From sequence record MN850574.1: a DNA stretch of 64,000 nt, one strand, 5' to 3'. Position numbers and translations under genes: made by a program. Under the pieces are notes generated by a model, which worked only from the letters and a program-made list of their open reading frames with translations, searched no databases and had not been told where the DNA came from. Source of the DNA: Escherichia phage kaaroe. Of this stretch, positions 51,446 through 57,281 are shown piece after piece. Position 1 is the first letter of the stretch. Each line of letters opens with the position of its first letter.

Positions 51446-51715
51446 ATGGCACTGACTAAAACCACTACCAACTTTGCAAAACGTCACGGCTTCGACATTG
51501 AAATCAATAGCTTTAACGATTACACTCTTCTGTGTGTATATGAAATCGAAAATGATTGCGAGTGGATGTTCAGCTATCGCGTAAACGAAGACGGATCTTT
51601 CACTTGGAACGGAAATATCTATCTTGCACAGGAAGTAAAAGAAGAACTTCCGGCGAATATCAAAGATGAGAAACATTTACGTCAAGTTTTAAAATTTATT
51701 TCTGAAAATATCTAA
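51446..51715 (+). CDS. hypothetical protein (89 aa)
   Basis: ORF track; GGAGAATCAAAC SD. Confidence 0.5.
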   Translation: MALTKTTTNFAKRHGFDIEINSFNDYTLLCVYEIENDCEWMFSYRVNEDGSFTWNGNIYLAQEVKEELPANIKDEKHLRQVLKFISENI

Positions 51716-51723
51716 AAAAGTTG

Positions 51724-51757
51724 TTGACACCAAAGTAAGAACATAGCATAATACACC
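51724..51757 (+). promoter_or_regulatory. PeSL-like early promoter cassette
   Basis: TTGACA ... CATAATACACCC; conserved leader. Confidence 0.55.
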
Positions 51758-51785
51758 CATACCGAAACGAACTGGAGAATCAAAA

Positions 51786-52067
51786 ATGAAATTCATCAAA
51801 GCAACCGAAATCCTGAAAAACAAAGAAGCATACATCGGAAACATCGTTGGTATGAACATTCGCGGCGCTGGTAGCCAGTGGACCAAACTGGTTGATGTTA
51901 AAGCTAAAGGCGATAAAATTGAGTTCACTGTAAAAATGCTTACTCATAACGCACATATGGGTATCAAGACAAAAACGATGGCAGCAGATAAAAGCATTAA
52001 CTATCAGGGTCTGGGTGATTGGCTGAACTGGTGCAAAATGCACAATATCGAAACTAATCACGAATAA
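51786..52067 (+). CDS. hypothetical protein (93 aa)
   Basis: ORF track; GGAGAATCAAAA SD. Confidence 0.5.
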   Translation: MKFIKATEILKNKEAYIGNIVGMNIRGAGSQWTKLVDVKAKGDKIEFTVKMLTHNAHMGIKTKTMAADKSINYQGLGDWLNWCKMHNIETNHE

Positions 52068-52081
52068 TTTTAAAAAAGTTG

Positions 52082-52110
52082 TTGACGGGGATCGGGAGAT
52101 CCCCTATAAT
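52082..52110 (+). promoter_or_regulatory. PeSL-like early promoter cassette
   Basis: TTGACG, GGGGATCGGGAGATCCCC, TATAAT; conserved leader. Confidence 0.6.
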
Positions 52111-52143
52111 ACACACATAACGAAACGAAATAGGAGAATCAAA

Positions 52144-52311
52144 ATGTTCGAGACTAAAGCAGCATGTGAAGCATATATCATTGAAACCCACGGCGAAGAT
52201 TATCTGAAATTTGACATTGTAGTAGCACAGAAGATTGTAGGGATGGTTGCAAAATATCTGGGTGTTAAAGAAGGTTACTATCCGAGCAACGCACCAGAAA
52301 TTAACAAATAA
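52144..52311 (+). CDS. hypothetical protein (55 aa); near-identical copy of 48864-49031
   Basis: MFETKAACEAYIIETHGEDYLKFDIVVAQK...; below track cutoff. Confidence 0.5.
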   Translation: MFETKAACEAYIIETHGEDYLKFDIVVAQKIVGMVAKYLGVKEGYYPSNAPEINK

Positions 52312-52325
52312 TTTTATAAAAAGTA

Positions 52326-52354
52326 TTGACAGGGGAGGATAACTCCCCTACAAT
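52326..52354 (+). promoter_or_regulatory. PeSL-like early promoter cassette
   Basis: TTGACA, GGGGAG-GATAA-CTCCCC, TACAAT; conserved leader. Confidence 0.6.
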
Positions 52355-52394
52355 ACAACCATCAAGACGAGATACCACTTAGGAGAATCAAACA

Positions 52395-52646
52395 ATGGCT
52401 AACATCGAAACCGCAAAGAAAATCGCTAAAGACCTGAACGTTAAAGGCTTCCGTAAACTGAAATTACAGCGTGTACGCTACACCATCGGCAAACAGTGCT
52501 CTTTCATGAGCGAAGAAGTTGCTAACAGCCTCATTGATAACCTGATTGCGGCTGGCTGGGAAGTTGCGGATCTGAAAACTTGCCGCGAACTGGCTAACAA
52601 AGGTCTTTTAGATTCTGTTACTATCAAACCAATGGGGGCAGCGTGA
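52395..52646 (+). CDS. hypothetical protein (83 aa); first gene of the coupled operon
   Basis: ORF track; GGAGAATCAAAC SD. Confidence 0.5.
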   Translation: MANIETAKKIAKDLNVKGFRKLKLQRVRYTIGKQCSFMSEEVANSLIDNLIAAGWEVADLKTCRELANKGLLDSVTIKPMGAA

Positions 52647-52888
52647 AAAGAAAATTAATTAAACGCAATAAGGAATTTCTTAATAACTGCATTAAGGCCG
52701 CTAATGGTTGGCCTTTGTGCCTCTTCCTTTATGATTGGTATTCTAAACAATCAGTTGAGGAAACACGACACTATAAGAAGATCAGAAAAGAATCATATAC
52801 AAAACAAGGCCGCATTAACGGACTTTACTTAATGTGGCACGGCAAAGAACCTTCTAAAATCTGCGTTGGATTAAAGGGGCGTATATGA
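52643..52888 (+). CDS. hypothetical basic protein (81 aa)
   Basis: ORF track; start overlaps previous stop. Confidence 0.5.
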   Translation: MKRKLIKRNKEFLNNCIKAANGWPLCLFLYDWYSKQSVEETRHYKKIRKESYTKQGRINGLYLMWHGKEPSKICVGLKGRI

Positions 52889-53601
52889 AACAAAAATTAA
52901 TATTCTGTAACTTTGACGGATCGGGGATAATGGGGCTAGAATGGGCTAAAGCAGGTCATAAGGTGATCTGCTTTAATGCTGACGATGGCGACCACGGCAC
53001 ATACAAAAAGTATAATACCAGATTTGAACACCCAAACATTACCTATGTAAACACATGGATTGATTTGAACTGGCTAGAAAGAGCAATGGACCTTGAATGG
53101 GGGAAACCGGATATTATCTTTGCATTCCCACCGTGCACCAATTTAGCTGTTAGTGGCGCTGCACACTTTGAACGAAAGAAACGAGAACAAGGACCATTGA
53201 TTCAAGTTCATGATGTAAGGGCAGCTAAAATAACCGCTTATTTGGGTGAATGGCTAGGAGTTCCCTACATGATAGAGAATCCTGTAAGCGTTATCTCTAG
53301 CATGTGGCGTAAGCCTGATTACATGTTCCACCCGTGGGAATATGGCGGTTATTTGCCGGAAGATGATAAACATCCTACTTTTCCTGAGTATATCGCCGCC
53401 CGTGATATGTACCCGAAAAAGACTTGCTTATGGACCGGACAAGGCTTTATAATGCCAGAAAAGAAACCGTTGCAGATTAATAAAGGGTACAGTAAACAGC
53501 ATTCTAAGCTAGGCGGGAAAGGAACGAAAACAAAGACTATCAGGTCACTTACCCCGCGAGGATTCGCAAAGGCAGTATTTGAAGCAAATAAGGATCTATG
53601 A
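52885..53601 (+). CDS. short DNA C5-cytosine methyltransferase-like protein (no obvious target-recognition domain)
   Basis: 238 aa; motif I-like FDGSGIMG, motif IV-like FPPCTNLAVSGA, motif VI-like IENPVSV. Confidence 0.55.
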   Translation: MKQKLIFCNFDGSGIMGLEWAKAGHKVICFNADDGDHGTYKKYNTRFEHPNITYVNTWIDLNWLERAMDLEWGKPDIIFAFPPCTNLAVSGAAHFERKKREQGPLIQVHDVRAAKITAYLGEWLGVPYMIENPVSVISSMWRKPDYMFHPWEYGGYLPEDDKHPTFPEYIAARDMYPKKTCLWTGQGFIMPEKKPLQINKGYSKQHSKLGGKGTKTKTIRSLTPRGFAKAVFEANKDL

Positions 53602-53936
53602 TGAGATTGTTTAAGTATTCGCTAACGTCAAATTACGATAAACAAGGTCATTGCATCCGTTGCCCTGATTGTCATAGCCATAACATCGAAAGCAAGATCA
53701 CCGATCATATTGATGGACTTTGGTCGCCAGCAAGTGAAATAGAATACTATTGCGCTGATTGTGGAATTGTAGTAGCATATTGGGCATACGGATCATATGA
53801 TCCATACTTCCAGATGGGAGAACGTTCAATCCCTGCGCTTATCTGGAGAATTAAGAACAATATCCGCTATTCATGGGATGAGTTCTTAAAAGATATTGAT
53901 TTACGTGATGATCCATTCAGGAGAACTATATTATGA
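53598..53936 (+). CDS. zinc-finger protein (112 aa)
   Basis: CIRCPDCHSH ... CADCG cysteine clusters; start overlaps previous stop. Confidence 0.5.
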   Translation: MMRLFKYSLTSNYDKQGHCIRCPDCHSHNIESKITDHIDGLWSPASEIEYYCADCGIVVAYWAYGSYDPYFQMGERSIPALIWRIKNNIRYSWDEFLKDIDLRDDPFRRTIL

Positions 53937-54112
53937 TAACACCACAACTACACGGTAAAGAGATTTGCGATCTTACTTGGGAAGAGTTGGTCATGTATCG
54001 CGACACCTACAAATGGTTTGAATCCATGAAAGAATTTGTAGCAGCAGTACGAGAAGAAATGAGCATTCGCCAGTATGCGGACGCATATATTGAAAAGGTA
54101 AGCACACTATGA
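53933..54112 (+). CDS. hypothetical protein (59 aa)
   Basis: MITPQLHGKEICDLTWEELVMYRDTYKWF...; overlaps neighbours on both sides; below track cutoff. Confidence 0.45.
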   Translation: MITPQLHGKEICDLTWEELVMYRDTYKWFESMKEFVAAVREEMSIRQYADAYIEKVSTL

Positions 54113-54627
54113 ACCGTTTAACGCCTAAACGCCGTTACTATACCAATACTAAAAACTTTGTCATCTCTGTTTATGAGGCGTGGTTAGAAGATGGCTTTAT
54201 CAACATGAACCCAGATTATCAGCGTCCTTTGGTATGGGACACCGAAAACAAACGTATGTTTATCGAAAACCTGATTAATGATTTTCCGGTTGGTGCTATC
54301 GCAATGGCTAAGATTGATGATGGCTCTCGCTATGAGATCGAAATCGTGGACGGTAAACAGCGTTTAAACGCAATATTCTCCTTCATGAAGGATGAGTTTA
54401 GCATTGCTGGTAATGATGATTCTATGTTGTATTACAGTGATTTTACGCCAGCAGAAAAGCGACGTTTCCGAAATCTCGGACTACCCGCGATCATGATGGA
54501 AGAGAGCACACGAGAAGACCGATTAGAGTATTTCTACAAAACAAACTTTTTCGGTGTGCCTCAATCGGAAGAACATCGCCAGCATGTGATTGCCCTATTG
54601 CAAGATGAGCAATTAAAAAATAACTAA
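54109..54627 (+). CDS. DUF262-like (ParB/Srx-fold, GmrSD/DndB N-terminal-type) domain protein
   Basis: 172 aa; PDYQRPLVWD...FPVGAIAMA...YEIEIVDGKQRLNAIFSF (DGQQR-type motif). Confidence 0.55.
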   Translation: MNRLTPKRRYYTNTKNFVISVYEAWLEDGFINMNPDYQRPLVWDTENKRMFIENLINDFPVGAIAMAKIDDGSRYEIEIVDGKQRLNAIFSFMKDEFSIAGNDDSMLYYSDFTPAEKRRFRNLGLPAIMMEESTREDRLEYFYKTNFFGVPQSEEHRQHVIALLQDEQLKNN

Positions 54628-54635
54628 AAAAGTTG

Positions 54636-54664
54636 TTGACAGGGGATCATCGATCCCCTATAAT
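54636..54664 (+). promoter_or_regulatory. PeSL-like early promoter cassette
   Basis: TTGACA, GGGGATCATCGATCCCC, TATAAT; conserved leader. Confidence 0.6.
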
Positions 54665-54698
54665 ACACACATACCGAAACGAACTAGGAGAATCAAAC

Positions 54699-54878
54699 AT
54701 GAAACACTTAACCATCGAATCGGCAATCATCGCAATCGCTAAAGTTCAAGCGGCTTATAATTGCACTGACATTGAAGCCATTTCAAAAATGCAAGCAGAA
54801 GCAGCAAAAGCGGGTGACGAGAAATCTTTAGATGTTCTCTGCGAAATCAAAGCAGAATTGATTTCAAAAATGTTCTAA
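54699..54878 (+). CDS. hypothetical protein (59 aa)
   Basis: Internal ATG of track ORF after AGGAGAATCAAAC. Confidence 0.5.
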   Translation: MKHLTIESAIIAIAKVQAAYNCTDIEAISKMQAEAAKAGDEKSLDVLCEIKAELISKMF

Positions 54879-54884
54879 AAGTTG

Positions 54885-54919
54885 TTGACATAACAGAGGG
54901 TGTATATCACAATACACCC
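54885..54919 (+). promoter_or_regulatory. PeSL-like early promoter cassette
   Basis: TTGACA; GGGTGTATATCACAATACACCC palindrome; conserved leader. Confidence 0.55.
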
Positions 54920-54949
54920 ATACCGAAACGAACTACTAAGGAGTATCAA

Positions 54950-55162
54950 ATGGCTAACATCGAAATCATCATTACCGACGTAACTTATGACCGCATTAAC
55001 GAAATCGGTACTGCATTACTGGAAGATGGAACAACTCGTACCATCAACTACGCAGAATACGTTGAAATGCGCGGTTGTATTAAACGAGTAGGAAAATATA
55101 TCCTGATTGAAAAAGACTATTCAGGATACACCTTAGAGCAATTGCTCGATGGTGCATTATAA
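54950..55162 (+). CDS. hypothetical protein (70 aa)
   Basis: ORF track; AAGGAGTATCAA SD. Confidence 0.5.
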   Translation: MANIEIIITDVTYDRINEIGTALLEDGTTRTINYAEYVEMRGCIKRVGKYILIEKDYSGYTLEQLLDGAL

Positions 55163-55167
55163 TAAAT

Positions 55168-55188
55168 GGGGGCGTTAAGCCCCTTTTT
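55168..55188 (+). terminator. intrinsic terminator
   Basis: GGGGGC-GTTAA-GCCCC followed by TTTTTC. Confidence 0.6.
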
Positions 55189-55229
55189 CATAAATATAGG
55201 TTTATAGGTTATCAACTAGAGGATATAAA

Positions 55230-57281
55230 ATGTTTAACTTAGAAATCGACGATCTAATGATTGAATCTTTCGAGAAATGGCTGTTGACGGAAGAGGAAGA
55301 AAACTTTGGCAGTATTGCTCCGGTACAGTGCTTAAAGCCTAAGCAGAATCCTAAACAGCTTTTTGCAGTACAGACACGCGATAAAGATGTGATTGTCCGT
55401 CTTTGTAACTTCACCAACAAAACACCTAAAATCATTCGTATGGGTGACAAGACCGCACATGTTGTACTGTGCGAAATGAACAAAAGCGGTCGTATTGTAC
55501 AGCTTAAAAATGGTCTAGGCGATAACCCGATTGCAGTTATGTCAAGTGCTTTTGATGTGGTTATGGAAACAGCCCGTAAAGCGCAATTAGACGCTGTTAT
55601 GTTCCGTTTTAACGTATCCCGCATGAAAGGTAAGACCGAACTGGTTAAGCGCGTTATAGAGCGTTTGGTGCGTCGTACACCGAAGTTTGAAGTATTCCAG
55701 CAGGAAGTAATGACCAGCAAAAAGATCGCTTTAGTTGTTGTCAAGCGTCGCGGGATGGCGATTGATAAGATTAAAGGTATTAAACTTGATGAATCCTTGT
55801 TCACTAAAGTAGAAAGTGATTTAGGTGATCGCTGGGTATCTAAGGCTACTGGTGAATCTCTGACTAAAGATGAGGCATATGCGGCTAGTCTTGTGTCAGA
55901 AGAAGAACGAAACGCGGAAGCAGAACAACGCGTAGCGGCTAAATCTCGTTTGACTAAAGAAGAAATGCTGAAAACTCAAGCGACATATAACAGCGACTAC
56001 GTGAATCATCCAGAAAAAATTAATCTTAAACCGGAAGAAGATATCACCGAAGCAGAACCTAAGAAACAGTTTAATACTCTGATTGACCGTCAAGCCTTAG
56101 AACGTTCAACCGCCCGTTCTCTGAATGACTGGACAAGTGATATTATCACTCGCTATGGTTTCATGCGTACTATTTTTGAAAGCGAAGCCGATGCAAAATA
56201 CGCAGTAAGCGAACTGGTAAAAGTTCAGGATCAATATGATCCATTGTCTGCGGAAGTTATCGCAGCCTCGGTCAAACGCTTAAAAGAAATCATGAGCGAG
56301 GAAGTATTCGAAAACAAGATCACCGCCCTGGCAATGGATCGAGTAGACCAGTCTATGCCAGCAGATGTAAAAGCTGAAATGCTGCGTAGTCATATCACCC
56401 AGATTAAAACAGATGCCCTACGTAATATTGCCTCCGGTATGTTTGAAGCAATTGCTAGCAACATGGGTGAAATGATGGCAGATATTGATCTTGATCTGCC
56501 GGGCGCGGAAGGTTTTGTGTTGAGCGAATATGCCGATGCAGCATACATCAATATGAACAACTTCCTAACCGACCGTAAGCTGGAAGAGTTTGAAGGCATC
56601 GCAGATCCAGAAGAATTGGTCAAGATGTGCGATGCACTGGATAATGCCTTCTCCAACTATGGCGTTAAACTTGATCCGGGTACTATTCTGTATCGTGGTA
56701 TGGACTTCCGGTCGCAAATGTGGGAAACTGCACGTAAGCAAAAAGCGTTTTACTTTAAAAACTATGTGAGCACTTCCCTTGCACCTAACATTTTTGGCGG
56801 CTGGAATGCAAACGTGGCTAGTGCCGTTGCTGGTGTTGATTCTATGGCTGGCTCTCGCGGTGAAGGTGGCGCTAATGTTGCTTTCTCCATTGCTGGCGCG
56901 GAAAACATCCCTGTATTGCCAGTAGGTAACAAAGCATTTGCTTACAAAGAATGCGAGATTTTACTTCCTCGCGGTGTTGTGTTATCCTTTGATACGGTAA
57001 CTCGTGCTACGGCATCGACGGATTCACAAGAAACTTATTACATCGAGGCACATATTATGAACAAAAATGAACTGGCAGCATTACAAGAATCTGGCGAGAT
57101 GATCGCGGACGGTGATGCATTCATCCGTGAAGGTGTTGTTAAACCGGCTTCTGACCTGTCTTTCTCCAGCTTCATTAGCGAAGCTAAAACCGAACGTAAG
57201 AAAGCAGATAAGGCAACTCTACGTCAGCTTATCGCTGATCTGGTATCTGTAGACGCAATGCCAGATAAATTTAAAATGTAA
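55230..57281 (+). CDS. alt: Alt-like ADP-ribosyltransferase (packaged RNA polymerase-modifying enzyme)
   Basis: 683 aa (T4 Alt is of similar length); C-terminal R-S-E triad (LYRG, YVSTSL, ECEILLPRG); between ligase and baseplate genes. Confidence 0.8.
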   Translation: MFNLEIDDLMIESFEKWLLTEEEENFGSIAPVQCLKPKQNPKQLFAVQTRDKDVIVRLCNFTNKTPKIIRMGDKTAHVVLCEMNKSGRIVQLKNGLGDNPIAVMSSAFDVVMETARKAQLDAVMFRFNVSRMKGKTELVKRVIERLVRRTPKFEVFQQEVMTSKKIALVVVKRRGMAIDKIKGIKLDESLFTKVESDLGDRWVSKATGESLTKDEAYAASLVSEEERNAEAEQRVAAKSRLTKEEMLKTQATYNSDYVNHPEKINLKPEEDITEAEPKKQFNTLIDRQALERSTARSLNDWTSDIITRYGFMRTIFESEADAKYAVSELVKVQDQYDPLSAEVIAASVKRLKEIMSEEVFENKITALAMDRVDQSMPADVKAEMLRSHITQIKTDALRNIASGMFEAIASNMGEMMADIDLDLPGAEGFVLSEYADAAYINMNNFLTDRKLEEFEGIADPEELVKMCDALDNAFSNYGVKLDPGTILYRGMDFRSQMWETARKQKAFYFKNYVSTSLAPNIFGGWNANVASAVAGVDSMAGSRGEGGANVAFSIAGAENIPVLPVGNKAFAYKECEILLPRGVVLSFDTVTRATASTDSQETYYIEAHIMNKNELAALQESGEMIADGDAFIREGVVKPASDLSFSSFISEAKTERKKADKATLRQLIADLVSVDAMPDKFKM

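Follow-up and report, generated by a model that had tools for sequence, protein, structure and literature searches.

Do six small genes, chained by overlapping start and stop codons behind a single early promoter, encode the parts of one DNA-modifying machine, or are they a mosaic of independently acquired genes? The question is raised by positions 52395–54627 of a 64,000-nucleotide stretch of Escherichia phage kaaroe (sequence record MN850574.1; the whole stretch is called the window below), an RB49-like, T4-type coliphage of the genus Krischvirus. A first-pass annotation of this cluster had proposed a novel, possibly split, DNA-modifying or restriction-countering complex that would include a C5-methyltransferase-like protein devoid of a target recognition domain (TRD), a Cys-cluster zinc-finger protein and a DUF262-like protein. 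The cluster is probably a mosaic of accessory genes gathered in an early unit that is bounded by two PeSLs (early promoters with a stem-loop between their hexamers), and its sole assignable product is an orphan C5-cytosine methylase, P3, which would work without a partner in an anti-restriction role. The features referred to throughout are the following.

52326..52354, + strand: PeSL early promoter, TTGACA, a GGGGAGGATAACTCCCC stem-loop (G4/C4 stem between the hexamers), TACAAT; spacer N17
52395..52646, + strand: P1, 83 aa, RB49p190 homologue, genus-restricted small protein; phrog_14908 at 5e-59
52643..52888, + strand: P2, 81 aa, GTG start, RB49p189.1 homologue, basic small protein; phrog_7065 at 5e-38
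52885..53601, + strand: P3, 238 aa, RB49p189 homologue, short stand-alone Dcm-like C5-cytosine DNA methyltransferase; Cys84 in PPC, Glu131 in ENP, FDGSG loop for S-adenosylmethionine (SAM)
53598..53936, + strand: P4, 112 aa, RB49p188 homologue, CxxCxxC...CxxC zinc-ribbon protein; phrog_2993 at 3e-33
53933..54112, + strand: P5, 59-aa ORFan lying exactly between P4 and P6
54109..54627, + strand: P6, 172 aa, RB49p187 homologue, 'mini-DUF262', a stand-alone ParB/Srx-fold domain of nucleoside triphosphate (NTP)-binding type (YQR...DGKQR) without a nuclease domain
54636..54664, + strand: next PeSL, closing the cassette and starting the following gene; TTGACA, stem-loop, TATAAT, 12/12 consensus

The anatomy of the cluster agrees with what had first been read from it. 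Six open reading frames (ORFs) on the plus strand in the ORF list of the window span 52395–54627, with coordinates that matched the first reading exactly, behind the PeSL at 52326. Each of the five junctions is a 4-nt overlap of start and stop codons (GTGA at 52643; ATGA at 52885, 53598, 53933 and 54109), and a purine-rich stretch resembling a Shine–Dalgarno (SD) sequence can be read ahead of every start. The first-pass annotation had counted six genes and spoken of five proteins; six genes are present here, and five is the number found in RB49. The upstream PeSL matches the sigma-70 consensus at 11 of 12 positions with a 17-nt spacer, and the second begins 9 bases past the last stop codon of the cluster. 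A sigma-70-like promoter with a G/C-tract stem-loop thus stands on both flanks, as in a PeSL-bounded cassette, and matches to the exact PeSL pattern number three in the window and none in 100 shuffles. Within the cluster there is no convincing internal promoter or terminator (10 promoter-like matches against 9.6 expected), and an Rfam search of 51500–55500 returned no RNA element. Given the PeSL flanks, the overlaps and the lack of convincing internal signals, co-transcription and translational coupling of the six ORFs from one early promoter are plausible, as is the co-expression originally proposed.

Junction statistics drawn from a crude ORF chain of the whole window put this packing in context. 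Overlap as such is routine there: 32 of 81 same-strand junctions overlap in some way, 14 of them by exactly 4 nt. The five consecutive 4-nt overlaps of the cluster form the sole run longer than one (p~0.002 if junctions are independent), and the packing is therefore tighter than the local norm. PeSLs have been shown to act as promoter and terminator cassettes in RB49 and phi1 (Arbiol et al. 2010, PMC2839356), and PeSL-mediated cassette shuffling has been described for the hyperplastic region, with ORF192 as an example (PMC2839356). The present cluster likewise has a canonical PeSL on either flank and shares the hyperplastic region of ORF192, but it holds five or six translationally chained ORFs where most RB49/phi1 cassettes hold one or two. 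In such a T4-type hyperplastic region, a neat row of overlapping genes does not by itself point to a pathway.

Assignment of the methylase rests on its family and fold. P3 matches the PHROGs family phrog_757, "DNA methyltransferase", at 2e-90, and its family counts about 7,300 homologues, of which all 120 listed measure 219–259 aa. Across 30 homologues the elements F-x-G-S-G, PPC(T), ENP, WR and LGGK...IRSLTPRG are invariant; they include SAM-binding motif I (F10-D-G12-S13-G14, after strand 5-9 in the model), motif IV (P82-P83-C84-T85) and motif VI (E131-N132-P133). The AlphaFold model is confident (predicted local distance difference test, pLDDT, 89.6), and its catalytic-domain fold is closest to known C5 DNA methyltransferases. 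Compared with M.HhaI, M.HaeIII, the prophage CP-933R methyltransferase (3g7u) and the DNMT3 catalytic domain, P3 is approximately 90–100 residues shorter; unlike the classical C5 DNA methyltransferases, it carries a reduced, family-invariant region at the position of the variable TRD and has no clear motif X. No large variable TRD was found between motifs VIII and IX, the intervening ~70 residues being highly conserved family-wide, and the original description, "C5-MTase-like with little TRD", is a fair one. Direct searches of PDB sequences with P3, whether run on the single sequence or on a profile, returned no significant match, PADLOC gave generic type II methyltransferase matches only, and NCBIfam offered no usable match for any of the six proteins. 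Against the assignment stands the match to PF00145, which reaches 14.4 bits (E 0.027), below the 22-bit cut-off, and covers the N-terminal 90 residues only; just 4 of 30 family members attain E<=0.01 with this model. The methyltransferase-like call for P3 and the DUF262-like call for P6 nevertheless survive profile and structure tests and are not spurious.

A characterised relative indicates how such a protein works. The 711-bp gene bas06_0055 of phage KarlJaspers (Bas06), annotated "Dcm-like C5 cytosine methyltransferase", encodes a product with 55% identity to P3 across 238 aa (E 1e-91). The two proteins share family and architecture (236 versus 238 aa), the catalytic Cys, the ENP Glu and the KK pair, with C82/E128/K175/K176 aligning to C84/E131/K178/K179 of P3, and both are encoded by early genes of virulent coliphages. 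Phage K42, a KarlJaspers/Bas06-like member of the Drexlerviridae, escapes retron Ec86 (Eco1) upon loss of its 711-bp "dcm". Expressed alone from a plasmid in E. coli, K42 Dcm raises 5-methylcytosine (5mC) on the retron's multicopy single-stranded DNA (msDNA), as measured by liquid chromatography coupled to mass spectrometry (LC-MS), and is toxic only together with the retron; the effect needs C82, E128, K175 and K176, and defence by Ec86 needs a CCTGG motif in the msDNA hairpin (K42 preprint). Since a full-length homologue with the same catalytic residues acts alone, P3 appears, by analogy, to be a member of a self-sufficient phage methylase family that needs no partner, and not a fragment of a split enzyme.

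The distribution of the six proteins points the same way. Among 50,697 phage records, P1 to P6 are found in 56, 160, 1,521, 277, 1 and 325 respectively, and they appear to have six different histories. Carriers of P3 homologues include T1-like Drexlerviridae, ~44-kb siphoviruses, Klebsiella phages of ~49 kb, rV5-like phages and phiKO2. The genes do lie outside the T4 core set, as had been claimed; the claim of novelty fails, as RefSeq already names RB49p189 "DNA methyltransferase" and the P3 family recurs in so many records. The region 52300–54700 matches 63 phage records, best of all FL04 (99.2%), with RB49 at 97.7% over 93% of the query, and 80% or more of the cluster is present in 56 Krischvirus records. 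Its content varies among them: RB49 has the five-gene form, and the 59-aa P5 is an extra ORF of FL04 and the window only, being absent from RB49, TB34, SAP and FL37, in which P4 adjoins P6. P2 is missing from one Krischvirus-like locus (L004), and indels between relatives fall at gene or PeSL boundaries. An apparent insertion of ~900 bp in FL37, ELT3 and ELT4 was rejected as an artefact of joined PeSL matches, the cluster itself being unchanged.

Gene neighbourhoods bear directly on whether these proteins belong together. In none of 78 viral loci that contain a P3 homologue and lie outside Krischvirus did tblastn find a homologue of P1, P2, P4, P5 or P6 within the flanks surveyed (up to 6 kb either way); the recurrent neighbours there are helicases and other replication genes. 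In the T1-like phages dcm lies among replication genes next to a helicase, in contrast to P3, whose neighbours in its PeSL cassette are five unrelated small genes. Neither a methylase nor a P4-like gene lies near the mini-DUF262 gene in RB43, KP27 or two metagenomic phage contigs, and in FritzHoffmann the P4 homologue is surrounded by unrelated small genes, with no adjacent methylase. Joint presence of the component genes in unrelated genomes was not found in the 78 loci, RB43, KP27, FritzHoffmann, KarlJaspers or the metagenomic contigs, and the survey of other phages suggested at the outset has thus yielded no recurring gene combination.

These data weigh on the idea that the cluster encodes a multi-subunit DNA-modifying or restriction-countering machine, in which a TRD-poor methylase would be targeted by the zinc-ribbon protein, the DUF262 NTPase or both, in the manner of DndB/DpdB-type ParB-like helpers. 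Two facts speak for it and weigh against a mere mosaic: the run of five 4-nt overlaps is unusual in the window, and a five-gene core is kept across at least 56 Krischvirus genomes, so functional interplay is possible on sequence alone. The region of P3 at the TRD position is also short, DUF262/ParB-like proteins do occur in Dnd-type systems (9jfl is among the PDB matches), and in about 30 T1-like loci the Dcm homologue is directly preceded by the gene for a small Cys-rich protein of another kind. Such a machine is nonetheless quite unlikely in view of the empty count at the 78 loci, the activity of the K42 homologue alone in E. coli, and the occurrence of P4 and P6 families without methylases. 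The stretch of P3 from motif VIII to the C-terminal helix is, moreover, conserved family-wide, as expected of a self-contained, single-specificity enzyme, and the cluster persists when the ORFan P5 is inserted between P4 and P6 or P2 is lost. Neither the split DNA-modifying complex originally envisaged nor a cooperative one is accordingly supported; of the restriction-countering role, the part that concerns the methylase remains reasonable.

In those ~30 T1-like loci (for example, L032 5746–5988, and bas06_0056 of KarlJaspers, L093 15808–16032), the gene immediately preceding the Dcm homologue encodes an acidic protein of ~80 aa that ends in the Cys cluster CGCNFDPSCSRC. BLAST shows no similarity between this protein and P4, and a small Cys-rich protein beside a methylase in two phage groups may be coincidence or analogy.

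If P3 acts on phage DNA, as we infer, its recognition site is of interest. Unlike K42 Dcm, the Krischvirus enzyme is known here from its sequence; the candidates for its site are CCWGG and CCNGG. CCSGG, GGCC and CCWGG occur in the window at 0.27, 0.36 and 0.38 of expectation; AAGCTT, AGCGCT, AGTACT, CAGCTG, CCATGG, CCGCGG, GAATTC, GGATCC and TCCGGA are missing altogether where 8–23 were expected, and ACCGGT occurs once against 14 expected. GATC is unavoided (1.04 of expectation), and a T4-Dam orthologue encoded outside the window covers this site. The depletion of CCWGG was considered as a pointer to the methylase site and rejected as non-specific, the window avoiding palindromes generally. 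With 32 CCNGG sites per 64 kb, methylation there would touch about 0.25% of cytosines.

A comparison of two other Krischviruses also bears on the site. SAP (OZ034687) and TB34 (OX001802) are 99.96% identical, and a published SNIPPY table lists 15 single-nucleotide polymorphisms (SNPs) between them, all C>T or G>A. Eight of the 15 could be located, all within SAP 2800–32900, and each of the eight falls at the central base of a CCSGG site that TB34 reads as CCWGG; they affect 8 of the 14 CCSGG sites in that interval. RB49 sides with SAP at six of the eight sites and the window does so at both of the two that it covers (~61459 and ~63098), leaving TB34 as the outlier. Ordinary divergence between SAP and RB49 has a mixed substitution spectrum. 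Apart from these SNPs, SAP and TB34 differ by 1-nt homopolymer indels, which disrupt essential genes of TB34 such as gp29, which is split in TB34 and intact in RB49. SAP was sequenced on Illumina, and the propagation host was DH5alpha. There is about an even chance that the TB34 reads were systematically miscalled at a modified motif, with P3 as the candidate maker of the mark and CCNGG, rather than CCWGG, as its site. The Dcm of the host methylates CCWGG in double-stranded DNA (K42 preprint), so a mark at CCSGG would have to be phage-made; the only other methylase annotated at the SNP sites is the T4 Dam orthologue, which leaves P3 as the candidate.

Real mutagenesis driven by the methylase is an alternative account of these SNPs, and the CCSGG signal could have other causes. 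Two further points tell against the preferred reading of the cluster. The CCWGG assignment for K42 was made from analogy with host Dcm and motif mutagenesis rather than from a methylome, and the virion DNA of TB34, whose cluster is 97.7% identical to that of the window, showed no detectable modified nucleoside by high-performance liquid chromatography and mass spectrometry (HPLC/MS). As CCNGG methylation would concern only ~0.25% of cytosines, the latter result excludes bulk modification only.

Two readings would remove P3 from phage DNA modification as conceived here or enlarge its part in it. In the first, P3 would not be a methylase of the phage genome at all, acting instead on RNA, host DNA or defence nucleic acid, or having decayed catalytically, and the cassette would have no role in DNA modification. 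This is very unlikely: throughout a very large family no catalytic or SAM-loop residue varies, the closest structural matches are C5-methylases acting on DNA, formation of 5mC by the homologue depended on its catalytic residues, and the CCSGG-specific anomaly of TB34 speaks for a mark on cytosines of virion DNA. In the second, the cluster would be the missing pathway for the 5-hydroxymethylcytosine (hmC) and glucosyl-hmC reported for Krischvirus SAP, through post-replicative C5 modification begun by the C5-methyltransferase-like enzyme. Hypermodification initiated by C5-methyltransferases is a known kind of pathway in other phages, to which TET-associated glycosyltransferases belong. The authors of the SAP report call the pathway unknown and state that genes for hydroxymethyl-dCMP (hmdCMP) synthase and glucosyltransferase are absent from Krischviruses. 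The proposal is largely refuted all the same: the cluster was rejected as a source of these bases when its coding sequence proved identical in SAP, reported as modified, and in TB34, which has canonical C. Pfam, PHROGs and NCBIfam, in addition, reveal no oxygenase or glycosyltransferase in the cluster, and the modification profile of SAP equals that of the co-studied Tequatroviruses, which suggests a mixed DNA preparation.

P6 is the other product with a recognisable domain. It matches PF03235 (GmrSD_N/DUF262) at 5e-20, above the curated cut-off, and a profile built from P6 and its relatives matches solved DUF262 proteins (9jfl, 20yv, BrxU 7p9k and SspE) across YQR...DGxQR; DGKQR is invariant, and the fold of P6 matches BrxU and SspE. 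With the type IV enzymes of the GmrSD family, BrxU (7p9k), SspE (6jiv) and DndI (9jfl), it shares the N-terminal ParB/Srx-like DUF262 domain and the YQR and DGxQR motifs. In contrast to the GmrSD-family enzymes, it belongs to a clade of short phage proteins and lacks a C-terminal DUF1524/HNH nuclease: P6 ends at residue 172 after DUF262, with no second Pfam domain, and therefore cannot act as a restriction enzyme by itself. Its closest relatives are also without a nuclease domain. The nearest relatives (70 clusters below 1e-30 in an exhaustive HMMER search) measure either 160–190 aa or ~210–340 aa (mostly ~250–290); the longer ones carry an unassigned N-terminal extension, and in nearly all of them the match ends a few residues from the C-terminus. 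P6 thus belongs to a dedicated "mini-DUF262" family and is not a recently truncated GmrSD. RB43 ORF182c and KP27_190 are examples of its homologues in other T4-like genera, which are 35–38% identical, and the family is common to several T4-like genera without an hmC pathway; the lack of such a pathway has been reported for Krischvirus and Pseudotevenvirus (PMC12115623).

In RB43 (ORF183c/182c, L087 2640–3507) and KP27 (KP27_191/190, L088 2657–3507), a gene for a ~110-aa protein lies just upstream of the mini-DUF262 gene, overlapping or abutting it. By eye, its N-terminus resembles a small beta-rich domain and its C-terminus is hydrophobic. It resembles nothing in the Krischvirus cluster and may be a recurrent partner of mini-DUF262 proteins.

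As to function, our best guess, of low confidence, is that P6 is an NTP-binding regulator or a counter-defence protein. A pairing of two genes can be imagined, in which P6 would be a decoy or dominant-negative inhibitor of DUF262-nuclease defences of the GmrSD, BrxU, SspE or DndI type, co-expressed with P3 because 5mC-bearing DNA attracts modification-dependent restriction. Like the N-domains of BrxU and SspE, P6 has the ParB/Srx fold with its YQR and DG(K)QR motifs, but no nuclease; its clade is dedicated to short forms, its best PADLOC matches, of DUF262 type, are defence proteins (NsnA at 8e-21, PD-T4-2_A at 6e-12), and TB34 is unrestricted by BrxU. The pairing is unlikely, though, and wholly conjectural: no cytosine methylase lies near the mini-DUF262 gene of RB43, KP27 or the metagenomic phages, almost unmodified DNA is a simpler explanation of the resistance of TB34 to BrxU, and among the titles and abstracts of the papers listed none mentions a phage inhibitor consisting of DUF262 only. 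A broader form, also improbable, and somewhat more so, would make P6 the type of a class of phage counter-defence proteins that bind NTP and poison or decoy GmrSD, BrxU, SspE or DndI; its co-translation with a CCNGG-specific mini C5-methylase would let phage DNA be marked against type II restriction without the cost of modification-dependent restriction.

Under the preferred reading, a PeSL-bounded mosaic with P3 as its orphan methylase, the cluster would operate as follows. The PeSL would drive early transcription of the whole block, and ribosomes would pass from ORF to ORF by re-initiating at each ATGA or GTGA junction. P3, made early, would transfer methyl groups from SAM, with Cys84 as the nucleophile, to cytosines of replicating phage DNA within a short site of the CCNGG type (CCWGG at least). 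The phage may otherwise rely on site avoidance, with methylation protecting the few remaining CCNGG sites against EcoRII- or SsoII-type restriction in hosts without the matching methylase, and P3 would as a side effect expose the phage to detection by sensors such as retron Eco1/Ec86. P6 is a nuclease-less DUF262 (ParB-like, NTP-binding) domain of a separate phage family, P4 a zinc-ribbon protein, and P1, P2 and P5 are small proteins; cassette shuffling, with no shared pathway, would account for their standing side by side. Anatomy, fold, family membership and the independent distribution of the genes are established here; that P3 methylates the DNA of this phage, at which site, and that this guards against restriction are inferred.

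The main use of the finding is to avert a mis-filing: the "TRD-less" methylase is a known, self-sufficient phage Dcm, a further member of a characterised kind, and the rest of the cluster is a mosaic of accessory genes. The P3 methylase family is very common and a documented trigger of retron Eco1/Ec86, and if P3 acts like K42 Dcm, Krischviruses are predicted to be sensed by this retron. The TB34/SAP data may mean that the site of the family extends beyond CCWGG to CCSGG. What remains of interest is the specificity of so common a phage methylase, together with the mini-DUF262 family, as yet uncharacterised.

Four proteins remain. P1 is found only in the 56 Krischvirus records, always at 95% identity or more, with no informative relatives in a PDB sequence search. 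P2 has homologues of ~35% identity in Dhakavirus, in Enterobacter phages of ~170 kb and in Salmonella and E. coli phages of ~105–110 kb, the last of which have no methylase under the match. The zinc-finger call for the Cys cluster of P4 stands in the form of a weak zinc-ribbon match (PF08271 Zn_Ribbon_TF, 6e-4, below the cut-off); P4 has no match in the PDB sequence search and occurs, among others, in Nonagvirus (42% identity) and Felixounavirus. P5 has no family match in Pfam, PHROGs, NCBIfam or PADLOC, and FL04 is its only carrier among the phage records.

Some smaller observations concern these proteins and the flanks of the cluster. Residues ~43–75 of P1 resemble one helical hairpin of the pentatricopeptide repeat (PPR) type, 33 residues long, with a weak match to designer PPR repeats, and P1 also weakly matches the C-terminal region (722–785 of 938) of PADLOC RT_UG35 (E 2.6e-5). 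Insertion of P5 at the P4/P6 boundary makes ATGA overlaps on both sides (53933 and 54109); RB49-type genomes read ...ACTATAACATGAACCG at this boundary and the window reads ...ACTATATTATGA...CACACTATGAACCG, which suggests that the insertion occurred at a short ACTAT..ATGA microhomology. Upstream, the published PeSL-flanked mobile cassette ORF192 lies two genes before the cluster in RB49 (L001 1946–3012); it is absent from the window (51786–52311), where the homologues of ORF193 and ORF191 adjoin each other, as they do in phage phi1. Immediately 3' of the cluster, SAP (L095 2439–2600) differs from TB34 (L094) by a ~79-bp tandem PeSL duplication that corresponds to ~54617–54695 of the window and comprises the end of P6, the promoter, the stem-loop and the SD sequence. 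Unlisted in the published SNIPPY table, this duplication accounts for most of the 112-bp difference in length between SAP and TB34.

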